Source: a virus (lineage: Duplodnaviria; Heunggongvirae; Uroviricota; Caudoviricetes). From it: DNA of 13,173 nt. The notes beneath the pieces are model-generated. The model was not told the origin of the DNA. It saw only the letters and a program-made list of their open reading frames with translations, and ran no database searches. Made by a program: the position numbers and the translations under genes. The stretch lies in IMG/VR virus record IMGVR_UViG_638341082_000004. One strand, given 5' to 3'. Within the stretch, counting starts at the first letter, position 1. Each line of letters begins with the position of its first letter. Positions 9,383 to 13,173 of this stretch are shown here, piece by piece.

Positions 9383-10171
9383 ATGGCTTCAAACTGGATA
9401 AAGCTCGAAGTTATTACGCCGGATAAGCCGGAAATATTCAGGCTTGCTGAGATTCTGAATATTGATCCAGATGCCGCATTAGGGAAAGTCATTCGCTTCT
9501 GGGCATGGGCGGATCAACAAATGATAGACGGTAACGCAGAGTGTAACGCTCGCGGCGTTACAAAAAGTGCAATAGATCGCATCACTTTTATGGCTGGTTT
9601 TGCTGATGCGTTAATTCAGGTTGGATGGCTGGTCGAAACTAATGGTGTGTTGTCGCTTCCTAACTTTGAGCGCCATAACGGGAAAAGCTCTAAAAAACGG
9701 GCGGTTACAAACGAGAGAGTAACAAAAATACGAGAACTGAAACGAAAAGGTAACGCTGCCAGCGTTACAAAAACGGATCAAAAAGCGTTACCAGAGGAAG
9801 AGAAAGAGGAAGATATAAATACTTATCTCCCCCTAAATCCCCCTCGCCAAAAACGAGCGTCTAAAAAATTCGAACCGGAGGCTATCGAGCTGCCTGACTG
9901 GTTGCCGGAAACACTCTGGCATGAGTGGGTTCAGTTCAGGCAGGCATTGCGAAAACCGATTCGAACGGAGCAGGGCGCTAACGGGGCGATACGGGAGCTG
10001 GAAAAATTCCGCCAGCAGGGTTTTTCACCTGAGCAGGTGATTCGACACAGCATCGCCAACGAATACCAGGGCTTGTTCGCGCCGAAAGGTGTTCGACCTG
10101 AGACGTTACTCCGACAGGTTAACACCGTCTCGTTACCGGATAGTGCGATCCCGCCAGGCTTCAGGGGGTAA
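9383..10171 (+). CDS. ydaU: Putative replication initiation protein YdaU (lambda O-like position)
   Basis: 262-aa ORF MASNWIKLEVITPDKPEIFRLAEILNIDPDAALGKVIRFWAWADQQ... with SD AGGTG 7 nt upstream. It precedes the DnaC-like ydaV and contains iteron-like repeats. Confidence 0.85.
   Translation: MASNWIKLEVITPDKPEIFRLAEILNIDPDAALGKVIRFWAWADQQMIDGNAECNARGVTKSAIDRITFMAGFADALIQVGWLVETNGVLSLPNFERHNGKSSKKRAVTNERVTKIRELKRKGNAASVTKTDQKALPEEEKEEDINTYLPLNPPRQKRASKKFEPEAIELPDWLPETLWHEWVQFRQALRKPIRTEQGANGAIRELEKFRQQGFSPEQVIRHSIANEYQGLFAPKGVRPETLLRQVNTVSLPDSAIPPGFRG
9543..9561. repeat. Iteron-like palindrome GTAACGCT-cgc-GGCGTTAC (copy 2)
   Basis: Same motif as 9351-9369 with one arm mismatch, inside ydaU. 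Confidence 0.5.
9750..9768. repeat. Iteron-like palindrome GTAACGCT-gcc-AGCGTTAC (copy 3)
   Basis: Perfect arms, inside ydaU. Preceded by half-sites GGTTACAAA (9702-9710) and GTAACAAAAA (9719-9728) in an A-rich stretch. Confidence 0.5.
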
Positions 10172-10177
10172 CTGACC

Positions 10178-10924
10178 ATGAAAAATATTGCGACAGGCGA
10201 CGTTCTTGAACGTATCCGCAGACTGGCCCCGTCACATGTAACCGCGCCATTCAAGACGGTAGCGGAGTGGCGCGAGTGGCAACTTTCCGAAGGCCAGAAA
10301 CGTTGTGAGGAGATCAACCGTCAGAATCGTCAGTTGCGGGTGGAAAAAATTCTGAATCGCTCTGGCATCCAGCCATTGCACCGCAAATGCTCGTTTTCGA
10401 ATTACCAGGTGCAGAACGAAGGGCAGCGATACGCGTTGAGTCAGGCGAAATCCATCGCTGATGAACTGATGACCGGGTGTACAAATTTTGCGTTCAGCGG
10501 AAAACCTGGTACCGGGAAGAATCACTTAGCGGCAGCTATCGGGAATCGCCTGCTGAAAGACGGTCAGACAGTGATTGTGGTTACCGTGGCTGATGTTATG
10601 AGTGCCCTCCACGCCAGCTATGACGACGGGCAGTCAGGCGAAAAATTTTTGCGGGAACTGTGCGAAGTGGATCTGCTGGTTCTTGATGAAATTGGCATTC
10701 AGCGCGAGACGAAAAACGAGCAGGTGGTACTGCACCAGATTATTGATCGACGGACAGCGTCGATGCGTAGCGTGGGAATGCTGACAAACCTGAACTATGA
10801 GGCCATGAAAACATTGCTCGGCGAGCGGATTATGGATCGCATGACCATGAACGGCGGGCGATGGGTGAATTTTAACTGGGAGAGCTGGCGTCCGAATGTC
10901 GTCCAGCCAGGAATTGCGAAGTAA
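10178..10924 (+). CDS. ydaV: DnaC/IstB-like AAA+ helicase loader YdaV (lambda P analogue)
   Basis: 248-aa ORF with Walker A ([15 protein letters not shown]) and Walker B (DLLVLDEIG). SD AGGGGG upstream; begins 6 nt after the ydaU stop. Confidence 0.88.
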
Positions 10925-10946
10925 TTTTTACCGGGAGAAAAATTTA

Positions 10947-11708
10947 ATGGAGACTGTTTTTGACGCACTGAAAGCAATGGGGAAAGCTACGTCGGTAGAA
11001 CTGGCTGCGCGACTTGATATCAGTCGTGAAGAAGTGCTGAACGAGCTGTGGGAACTGAAAAAGGCTGGCTTCGTTGATAAAAGCGTATACACCTGGCGCG
11101 TGGCTGATAACAACGTTCAGCAGGAACAGCCAGAGCAGGCAGAACTGCCGGAAGAAACCACCACGGCAACAGTCGCAAAAATTTCGGAGTGCGATTTAAC
11201 TGCGACGATTGAACAACGTGGCCCACAAACGGCGGATGAACTGGCTACGTTTTTCGGCATCACATCACGCAAAGTGGCTTCAACGCTGGCAATGGCAATC
11301 AATAAAGGTCGTCTGATTCGCGTTAATCAGAACGGTAAATTTCGTTACTGCATGCCGGGCGATAATTTACCAGCAGAGCCGAAAGCTGCATCGGTAGCGG
11401 AAACTGATGGTAAAGCCTTTCCTCAGCCAGCCGGTGTTGCGTTACCAGTACAGGAAGCGGCAACACAGGAAGATATTAAAACAGAAACTGTGGCGGACAT
11501 TGTGCAGTCGCTGCCATCGTTTACTGAAACGCAAGCGGATGACCTGGTTTTACCATCGCTGCATATGGCAAACCGCGAACTGCGTCGGGCGAAAAATCAT
11601 GTCCAGAAGTGGGAGCGAGTCTGCGCCGCGCTGCGGGAGCTGAACAAGCACCGGGATATTGTCCGACAGATTGTCGATTCCTCCAGTCGTATTGTGTCGG
11701 AAAAGTGA
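10947..11708 (+). CDS. ydaW: YdaW-like protein with two tandem winged-helix DNA-binding repeats
   Basis: Track ORF 10896..11708; probable start is ATG 10947 ([45 protein letters not shown]...). A second similar repeat follows ([33 protein letters not shown]). Assigned by synteny and partial recall. Confidence 0.65.
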
Positions 11709-11723
11709 TTGCCGGAGGCGCTT

Positions 11724-12146
11724 ATGGCAAAAGTTTTTACACAGGAAGAGCGGGAAAAAATTAAAGGGCAGGTTGTTGAGCTAGTACGCCGGAGTGGACG
11801 TGAGACGTTACGGCAACTGGAAGTCAAGACAGATGCGACAAGATATCTGATGAGCGTTCTCGCAAGAGAGCTGGTTGCCAGCGGCGATGTATACAACTCT
11901 GGTTACGGGTTATTCCCGTCTGAACAGGCGCGTAAGGACTGGCAAAATGCCCGTAAAAAGCTCTCAAGGGCAAAGCTGAAGAAACCATCTGCGGTTGATC
12001 CGGACCTTATCTGGTCATTACCTGACGGAGAAATACGTCGCTACGACAGGCGTCAGAACATAATCTGTCGCGAGTGCCGGAAGAGTGAAGTTATGCAGCG
12101 CATATTGTCGTTTTATCAGGGTGATGTTCGGTATTTATTGAAGTGA
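11724..12146 (+). CDS. Hypothetical prophage protein (unknown function)
   Basis: Track ORF 11709..12146 (TTG); probable start is ATG 11724 (MAKVFTQEEREKIKGQVVELVRR...), 140 aa. Composition matches the phage module. Not recognised. Confidence 0.55.
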   Translation: MAKVFTQEEREKIKGQVVELVRRSGRETLRQLEVKTDATRYLMSVLARELVASGDVYNSGYGLFPSEQARKDWQNARKKLSRAKLKKPSAVDPDLIWSLPDGEIRRYDRRQNIICRECRKSEVMQRILSFYQGDVRYLLK

Positions 12147-12214
12147 CGAGATTAAAGTGCATTAGTTCAGATGCAAATTGACATTTTGTGGCACAGGGTA
12201 GAGCTAGCGTGGTT

Positions 12215-12246
12215 GTCCGCTTTGTGCCAGAGGCGGACGTTTTGGG
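12215..12246 (+). terminator. Candidate intrinsic terminator after the replication-module operon
   Basis: GTCCGC-tttgtgccagag-GCGGAC followed by GTTTTGGGTAT. Short stem and modest T-tract, so weak. Confidence 0.3.
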
Positions 12247-12276
12247 TATATTAACCTTACACTTCATGGATACTAT

Positions 12277-12305
12277 TCAACATCTCTTTTAAATTATTGT
12301 AAAAT
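12277..12305 (+). promoter_or_regulatory. Candidate sigma70 promoter for the AT-rich cargo gene
   Basis: TCAACA (12277-12282), 17-bp spacer, TAAAAT (12300-12305) preceded by TG. The 10-mer ATTGTAAAAT recurs at 12296-12305 and 12340-12349. Confidence 0.3.
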
Positions 12306-12534
12306 CCGACGCATTCATTGATTTACGGAAACTTGGCGTATTGTAAAATTGAACATCAAGATTTACACTATGAAGGTTAGGATAGTTTGTTAAAAGCATA
12401 ATGCATGAGGCCTGAATCAGTTTATTAAAGAAGTTTTGTATGAATTAAGTGGGCTAAAAATATAATTTTGAAGTATTTATGACTACATGATTCATATTCA
12501 ATTATTTGAGTTAAATATTTTTCATGGAGAAATT

Positions 12535-13173
12535 ATGGACGTTAGAATATTCTCATTAGAATCTCAGAAGAGTAAAATTTATGATAGAAGAACTAGAAAA
12601 TATTTTGAAGAGGTTTATAAGAGCTATGCTAATGGTTGTTACCGTTCTGCTACCGTGATGCTATGGTCAGTAGTTGTATGTGATATTATTTTTAAGCTCC
12701 AAGAACTGCGAGATGTTCATAACGATGCTGTTGCGGAAAAGATATTATTAGAAATTGAAGCACTACAAAACGATGATCCTTACTCTCCTAAATGGGAAAA
12801 AGAGCTTATTAAAAGAGTTTTTGAAAGAACTCAATTATTAGACACTGCTTCAAACCATAAAGTTTTACTTATTCAAAAACACAGGCATTTATCTGCCCAT
12901 CCCGTAATAAGTGACGAAGATACGTTATTCGAGCCAACACAGGAAATGATTAGAAGTGACATTAGGAATAGTATAGAAGTAATATTAAGCAAGCCGCCAT
13001 TTATGTCTCAAAAAATACTTTCCACATTTGTTGCAGATCTAGAAAAGGTAAAGGACCTATTCCCTTCCGATAACGCGCTAAAAAAATACTTAGATGTTAA
13101 ATATTTCAAATCTTTAAACAAGGAAGTATTAGTTAAGATATTCAAGGGTTGTGGAAGTTTTCGTTTAGATCTG
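12535..13173 (+). CDS. 5' part of an unrecognised AT-rich cargo ORF (at least 213 codons, no stop in window); possible HEPN-like R-x4-H protein
   Basis: ATG 12535 with SD GGAGA 5 nt upstream; open to the last base. Hand translation: [60 protein letters not shown]...[19 protein letters not shown]...[10 protein letters not shown]. Markedly AT-rich by eye; not in the ORF track because it has no stop. Confidence 0.6.

Follow-up and report, generated by a model that had tools for sequence, protein, structure and literature searches.

The left half of a single-gene DARNA (PD-T7-3) defence cassette in the variable cargo slot of a Rac-type prophage

Results

The window (the whole 13,173-nt stretch of DNA analysed here; the features described at 11709–13173 are on its + strand) ends in AT-rich DNA downstream of a phage replication module. 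The last backbone gene of this Rac-type module is a ydaW-like member of the DUF977 family (11709–12146; Pfam DUF977, E=1.6e-28), which is labelled as a DUF977 family protein in every matching genome and forms the upstream side of the cargo slot. GC content falls from 0.504 in the replication-module ORFs (9383–12146) to 0.323 at 12215–13173 (0.306 in the 5' untranslated part, 0.332 in the ORF part), in agreement with the AT-rich switch that the first-pass annotation had seen by eye. Next to the DUF977 gene lies a hairpin element conserved in the prophage backbone (12190–12245), identified by terminator scan, folding and a 7-locus alignment with a consensus hairpin. The AT-rich segment itself (12215–13173, GC 0.32) matches phage P2-EC30 and constitutes the left 959 bp of a 1,875-bp cassette. 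It contains an ORF that starts at ATG 12535, extends past the window edge and is still open at 13173, so the gene is indeed truncated there as previously noted; 47% of it lies inside the window, and its C-terminal half was inferred from genomes that are 99.9% identical.

We compared positions 12147–13173 with 5,426 complete E. coli genomes by megablast and found 14 copies spanning the ORF part of the window, while a whole-gene query returned 15 genomes. The downstream extension suggested in the first-pass annotation was made with strain SCZE5, which yielded the complete ORF of 455 amino acids (WP_001703208.1, a ‘hypothetical protein’ in RefSeq). The PADLOC search, also suggested there, was run with a full-length copy that is identical to the window through codons 1–205 (L001:14389-15753), and matched the PD-T7-3 model PDLC04108 over nearly its whole length (E=3e-168; residues 5–440 of the protein against 3–429 of the 432-position profile). 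The 455-aa protein is 100% identical over residues 1–455 to PDB entry 9wxf (12 chains, named ‘Dandelion’), and equally to the domain constructs 9wx2 (‘Dandelion-hepn’, residues 1–158) and 9wwz (residues 156–455). It also shares 100% amino-acid identity with ORF1 of AJ512676.1 (‘Bacteriophage P2-EC30 proviral Z-region, ORF1’). The name of that record suggests a P2-like prophage of ECOR30, and P2-EC30 thus probably originates from the strain in which PD-T7-3 was found: selection against T7 had recovered this system from E. coli ECOR30 (Vassallo et al., 2022; PMC9519451), and Table S2 of that study gives the same ORF length, 1368 nt. PD-T7-3 has since been renamed DARNA and described as an ssDNA-activated RNase (bioRxiv 10.64898/2026.02.22.705581). 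All ten residues mutated in the DARNA preprint (F6, N33, R98, R117, H122, K201, K204, E347, F368 and W406) are present under the same numbers. The region is therefore almost certainly the left half of a 1.9-kb single-gene DARNA (PD-T7-3) defence cassette in the variable cargo slot of a Rac-type prophage, with DARNA codons 1–205 in frame at 12535–13149, covering the HEPN domain (residues 1–159) and the first helices of the C-terminal domain.

The first-pass annotation had taken this for a novel gene. The RefSeq name, which says only ‘hypothetical protein’, is compatible with that reading, as are scans of the full-length protein against Pfam, NCBIfam and PHROGs, which returned nothing above threshold; the family assignment consequently depends on PADLOC, PDB identity and the literature. 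These three leave a previously undescribed defence or abortive-infection gene with practically no chance of being the right answer, given the full-length PADLOC match, the identity to deposited structures, a description in 2022 (PMC9519451) and a mechanistic account in the 2026 preprint. The earlier guess at an anti-phage abortive-infection function was right; the gene itself had already been discovered and characterised. A literature search combining ‘Dandelion’ with HEPN and phage found no relevant paper. At E values up to 1, Pfam gave only a sub-threshold match to DUF6559 and none to Abi_2 (PF07751), and we rejected membership of the AbiD/AbiF family for want of a Pfam match.

The motif R117-H118-L119-S120-A121-H122 is encoded at 12883–12900 (R117 codon, 12883–12885; H122 codon, 12898–12900), exactly the residues that had been singled out as a possible HEPN signature. 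The preprint names the catalytic motif R117X4H122 and uses H122A as the catalytic-centre mutant in cleavage assays (bioRxiv 10.64898/2026.02.22.705581). A search of a 5.8-billion-protein collection found 314 homologues at E<=1e-5, ranging from Gammaproteobacteria to Myxococcus, Paenibacillus, Bacteroidia and Patescibacteria. In 40 aligned homologues with 33–78% identity, R117, H122 and P123 never vary, and each of H118, L119, S120 and A121 reaches at least 90% conservation; lack of conservation, which would have spoken against the motif, was thus looked for and not seen. The protein combines the alpha-helical bundle of the HEPN superfamily with its R-x4-6-H motif (here R117-HLSA-H122), and the assignment of R-x4-H as a HEPN RNase motif holds on both the published and the comparative evidence.

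We then delimited the cassette by comparing its genomic contexts. Positions 92–1966 of the P2-EC30 Z-region correspond to L001:14069-15944 and to the window from 12215 onward, at 99.7% identity. The shared 1,875 bp run from window position 12215 to 188 bp past the stop codon and hold DARNA as their sole ORF. ARS-C101 and 442/2 have the cassette in P2-like prophages, flanked by the genes for tail-fibre assembly and tail sheath; this is the Z/fun slot, which Vassallo et al. described as a second P2 defence hotspot (PMC9519451). In F2_407_2_2 the cassette occupies a third type of island and adjoins IS2; this island (L006) has the left edge and the gene in common with the Rac and P2 copies. The neighbours beyond the shared cassette are the DUF977 gene upstream and either IS1 or a DUF1971 gene downstream. 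As the first-pass annotation proposed, this AT-rich 1.9-kb unit is horizontally acquired cargo in a prophage slot, and the Rac-type DUF977-distal slot is a second prophage home for it. Because DARNA is the only ORF in the DNA common to the Rac, P2 and third-island contexts, we consider it an autonomous single-gene module with no partner beyond the window. The partner genes that had been envisaged past 13173 are thus not part of the unit, and PD-T7-3 had been validated as a lone gene driven by its native promoter, in a clone that included 444 nt upstream of the ORF (Table S2 of PMC9519451, in which it is annotated ‘HEPN’).

The same data bear on the possibility that the protein is the toxin of a HEPN toxin–antitoxin pair, either HepT/MNT or an AbiF-like toxin with an RNA antitoxin, whose partner sits in the leader or beyond the window. 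We judge this very improbable. The full cassette has one ORF, and a HepT/MNT type VII system was rejected on finding neither a second ORF in the cassette nor an adjacent MNT nucleotidyltransferase gene. An Rfam scan of 11900–13173 gave as its sole match a sub-threshold CRISPR-DR hit at chance level (E=0.89), so the leader carries no known RNA element or antitoxin, and no credible small ORF was found in it. Furthermore, the gene with 444 nt of upstream DNA gave defence with no reported toxicity (PMC9519451), and the purified protein is inactive alone until ssDNA is added (bioRxiv 10.64898/2026.02.22.705581).

Upstream of the gene, the elements listed in the first-pass annotation were recovered to different degrees. 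A good Shine-Dalgarno sequence is in place (GGAG, 12526–12529, read from the sequence 5 nt before ATG 12535). Hexamer matching predicts a promoter-like element TTTACG-16-TAAAAT at 12322–12349, coinciding with the -35/-10 pair that the depositors of AJ512676.1 marked in this cassette, and an alternative one, TCAACA-17-TAAAAT, at 12277–12305. Both hexamer pairs exist, but this AT-rich DNA shows no enrichment for matches of the kind (8 found versus 4.9 +/- 2.4 expected from shuffles). Depending on the promoter the predicted leader is about 180–225 nt: about 223 nt from the alternative element, which is probably where the earlier figure of 230 nt came from, and only about 180 nt from the other. 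A terminator-like stem-loop of 10 pairs at 12214–12239 is followed by TTTTGGGT, and the terminator scan found 3 terminator-like sites in 12000–13173 versus 0.7 +/- 0.8 in shuffles. The hairpin and T-run proposed as a terminator are therefore there, while the fold of 12185–12255 is not more stable than shuffles (z = -0.61). With hexamers that are not enriched and a fold no better than shuffles, the promoter, terminator and leader are predictions only.

Another ATG in the same frame lies 48 nt before the true start (window 12487–12534); it has no Shine-Dalgarno sequence and gives a 471-aa reading that is used by some RefSeq and GenBank records (WP_257713991.1, CAD54896.1). The solved structures and the published residue numbering take ATG 12535 as the start.

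Comparison with the 15 complete E. coli genomes carrying the gene revealed a difference that the first-pass annotation had overlooked. The window has GGG at 13146–13148 where every other copy has GGGG, and this 1-nt deletion shifts the frame after codon 205 (G205). The last 8 codons of the window (13150–13173) consequently read CGSFRLDL instead of LWKFSFRS, out of frame relative to DARNA. The missing G is the sole difference between the SCZE5 allele and the portion of the gene inside the window, and with the SCZE5 downstream sequence the window allele would stop after 218 amino acids. As read, it lacks the intact C-terminal ssDNA-sensing domain (160–455, with F368 and W406) and the interface residue E347. 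The predicted 218-aa product would keep the HEPN domain and lose the ssDNA-binding claw (the F368 and W406 region) and the dodecamer contact E347. Having neither the ssDNA sensor nor parts of the oligomer interfaces, we infer that the allele as read should be inactive in defence.

We lean slightly towards the missing G being a real mutation. The other reading, to which we give a little under an even chance, is that the same gene was misread through a sequencing or assembly error and that the strain has an intact, functional DARNA. A G4 homopolymer is a typical site for indel errors, the window cassette shows no other difference from intact copies, and the 3-G variant is absent from every other sequence searched: searches of GTDB species representatives, IMG/VR and JGI metagenomes did not return it, and no entry in the protein collection matched the simulated 218-aa product exactly. 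Against an error, real decay of DARNA is common in the Rac context, as detailed below, and the window prophage is degraded elsewhere too, where a deletion associated with IS1 has removed int, xis and rcbA sequence.

Among complete E. coli genomes, 8 of the 12 DARNA copies in a Rac context are disrupted, in addition to the window allele, compared with none of the 3 found elsewhere. The disruptions arise from independent events. Combat13F7 carries a nonsense mutation (C298T, Q100*), as does FORC_082 (C1219T, R407*, at an invariant residue), which has also suffered an IS1-associated loss of all DNA upstream of window position 12357. In VTB96816v one nucleotide is deleted from an A-run, and in strain 1506 the first 487 nt of the gene are missing beside IS1. 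E89, I3, WEM25 and 1217KP all have an IS insertion at the DARNA start codon. We read the junction in E89, where a 5-bp target duplication, TTATG (window 12533–12537), includes the DARNA ATG; the remaining three have an identical split point and insert length. The element is annotated merely as an IS3-family transposase, and its terminal sequences (TGGATTTGCCCC... and ...GGGGGCCAGTCTA; L002:18148-19481) are IS2-like and suggest that it is IS2. The interrupted ORF retains its ATG and is cut off from the GGAG Shine-Dalgarno sequence and the upstream promoter region. An intact gene with its native upstream DNA is found in the Rac context only in SCZE5, XH993, ECJXMCRH7 and CUPF12. Outside it, intact DARNA occurs in P2-like prophages (ARS-C101, 442/2 and the P2-EC30 record) and in F2_407_2_2.

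We next examined the edges of the cassette. The cassette in common with P2-EC30 starts at 12215, and in genomes that carry different cargo the match to the window breaks off at about 12229–12241. A long hairpin, GGCACAG...CTTTGTGCC, overlaps the terminator-like hairpin (GTCCGC...GCGGAC plus T-run, 12214–12245), and the junction between backbone and cargo falls inside the terminator loop, after ...TTTGTGCCA; in all other-cargo genomes compared, the backbone ends at this point in the terminator-like loop, after the same TTTGTGCCA. An imperfect inverted repeat of 52 nt, 73% complementary and with the core GTCCGCTTTG / CAAAGCGGAC, frames the DARNA cassette; its sites are window 12190–12245, L001:14056-14107 and 15905-15956, and L010:60-116 and 1942-1966. 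These flanks also enclose the P2 Z/fun slot and other Rac-slot cargos (HNH-like and DUF5677 cassettes), and several cassettes in both Rac and P2 end rightward in the inverted copy CAAAGC(G/A)GAC. Rac/Qin-type and P2 Z/fun slots have in common roughly 50-bp hairpin-containing flanks of the form GTCCGCT(T/C)TGTGCC ... CAAAGC(G/A)GAC. Among the papers available to us, none helpful on inverted repeats in the P2 Z/fun region came up.

Two mutually exclusive hairpins are possible at 12190–12245. The long one (GGCACAGGG...CTTTGTGCC), which is conserved in both the Rac/Qin-type and the P2 backbone, ties up the 5' arm of the other, the terminator hairpin (GTCCGC...GCGGAC plus U-run). An antiterminator/terminator-like arrangement of this sort could control whether transcription of the replication operon continues into the cargo. 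In the 7-locus alignment none of the 13 pairs of the backbone hairpin is changed on both sides, so covariation lends no evolutionary support to a functional RNA structure.

Behind the DUF977 gene, Rac/Qin-type prophages have a variable hotspot. This slot holds NsnABC in KO11FL (PADLOC, E=1e-89 to 4e-123), Kiwa KwaAB in FCI51 (E=1e-101 and 2e-159), a DUF5677 protein in MS10495, and a BCCT transporter/DUF2254/LysR/MFS block in ECONIH4 and BL12 (cargo loci L018:4881-8084, L019:5750-7389, L017:4928-5953 and L004:19099-25349). Yet another cargo, in G12 and SM107, is a gene for a 269-aa protein, WP_000161640.1 (L003:18905-19714, - strand; also L015:4844-5653). Of the 5,426 complete E. coli genomes, 141 have this protein, and 29 of its places are on plasmids. 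Neither Pfam nor PADLOC gave a match for it; by eye, its CxxC...DH...CxHCNN motifs look HNH-nuclease-like. We regard it as an uncharacterised candidate defence gene, more novel than the DARNA finding.

Discussion

Gene identity, HEPN fold, motif conservation, cassette boundaries and single-gene content come from the present analysis; the mechanism is taken from the 2026 preprint (bioRxiv 10.64898/2026.02.22.705581). According to that work, DARNA consists of an N-terminal HEPN domain (1–159) and a C-terminal alpha-helical domain (160–456) and forms a dodecamer in which loop 81–85 occludes the six HEPN active sites; both dodecamer formation and the C-terminal domain are required for activity. 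ssDNA activates cleavage of tRNA anticodon loops, leading to abortive infection, and activation is best when the ssDNA is presented by phage SSB rather than E. coli SSB. Mutations in SSB let T3, T5 and T7 escape. Protection by abortive infection extends to T7, T3, T5 and T-even phages (PMC9519451; bioRxiv 10.64898/2026.02.22.705581).

For an intact 455-aa protein from this cassette, the model would be as follows. The protein would assemble into a dodecamer in which N-terminal HEPN domains pair into six R117/H122 sites, each held blocked by loop 81–85. Once a phage SSB (T7 gp2.5, T4 gp32 or T5 SSB) presents ssDNA, the C-terminal alpha-helical domains would bind it, reading ‘CT’ dinucleotides. 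Activated DARNA would then cut the anticodon loops of most host tRNAs, so that translation stops and the infection is aborted.

The closest known system is PD-T7-3/DARNA of ECOR30 itself (PDB 9wxf, 9wwz, 9wx2): it is the same protein, with residues 1–205 identical, in the same single-gene cassette, with the same R117-x4-H122 motif and matching upstream DNA from 320 nt before the ATG. The two copies differ in place, since the window copy sits in the Rac DUF977-distal slot whereas the ECOR30 copy, judging by AJ512676.1, sits in a P2-like Z/fun slot, and in the 1-nt deletion that shifts the frame of the window allele after codon 205. Csm6/Csx1 of type III CRISPR-Cas, HepT toxins, AbiA/AbiV, LsoA and HepS are distant relatives by fold only. 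Csm6 responds to cyclic oligoadenylate via a CARF domain and its cleavage of mRNA is non-specific, whereas the sensor of the dodecameric DARNA is an unrelated alpha-helical C-terminal domain that detects ssDNA, and its targets are tRNA anticodon loops; Csm6/Csx1 show no detectable sequence similarity to it (5% identity). In contrast to HepT/MNT and AbiD/AbiF (Abi_2), DARNA is regulated by ssDNA-dependent activation and not by antitoxin release. The anticodon nucleases PrrC and RloC are functional analogues, in that phage-triggered cleavage of host tRNA anticodon loops also serves there as abortive infection, and HepS and ApeA are HEPN defence proteins that are likewise borne by prophages or islands.

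Our analysis adds little to the biology; for annotation, the RefSeq ‘hypothetical protein’ should become DARNA/PD-T7-3. The locus also confirms that an R-x4-H motif in AT-rich prophage cargo, read with no tools, can correctly flag a HEPN abortive-infection gene. Many natural DARNA copies are dead alleles, which matters for defence repertoires inferred from gene presence alone.

The shared flanks suggest that cassettes are exchanged between lambdoid and P2-like prophages at a fixed point, perhaps by short-homology recombination of the RecET/Red type. Defence cassettes (DARNA, the HNH-like 269-aa gene and the DUF5677 gene) might in this way be swapped as discrete units between unrelated phage families. 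Recurrent inactivation of DARNA in the Rac context may mean that the gene is costly there, for instance if ssDNA bound to the prophage's own RecT activates it. Taken jointly, exchange through the shared flanks combined with recurrent inactivation driven by such a cost is a speculative reading that we consider rather unlikely to hold in full. We know of no earlier description of either cassette exchange via these flanks or recurrent DARNA inactivation in Rac.

Finally, the window carries an IS1 at 1214–1983 that is 100% identical to the IS1A copies of SCZE5. Relative to E89 it replaces 381 bp comprising the 5' end of intR, all of xisR and the 3' end of rcbA, and with this sequence lost the window prophage should be unable to excise.
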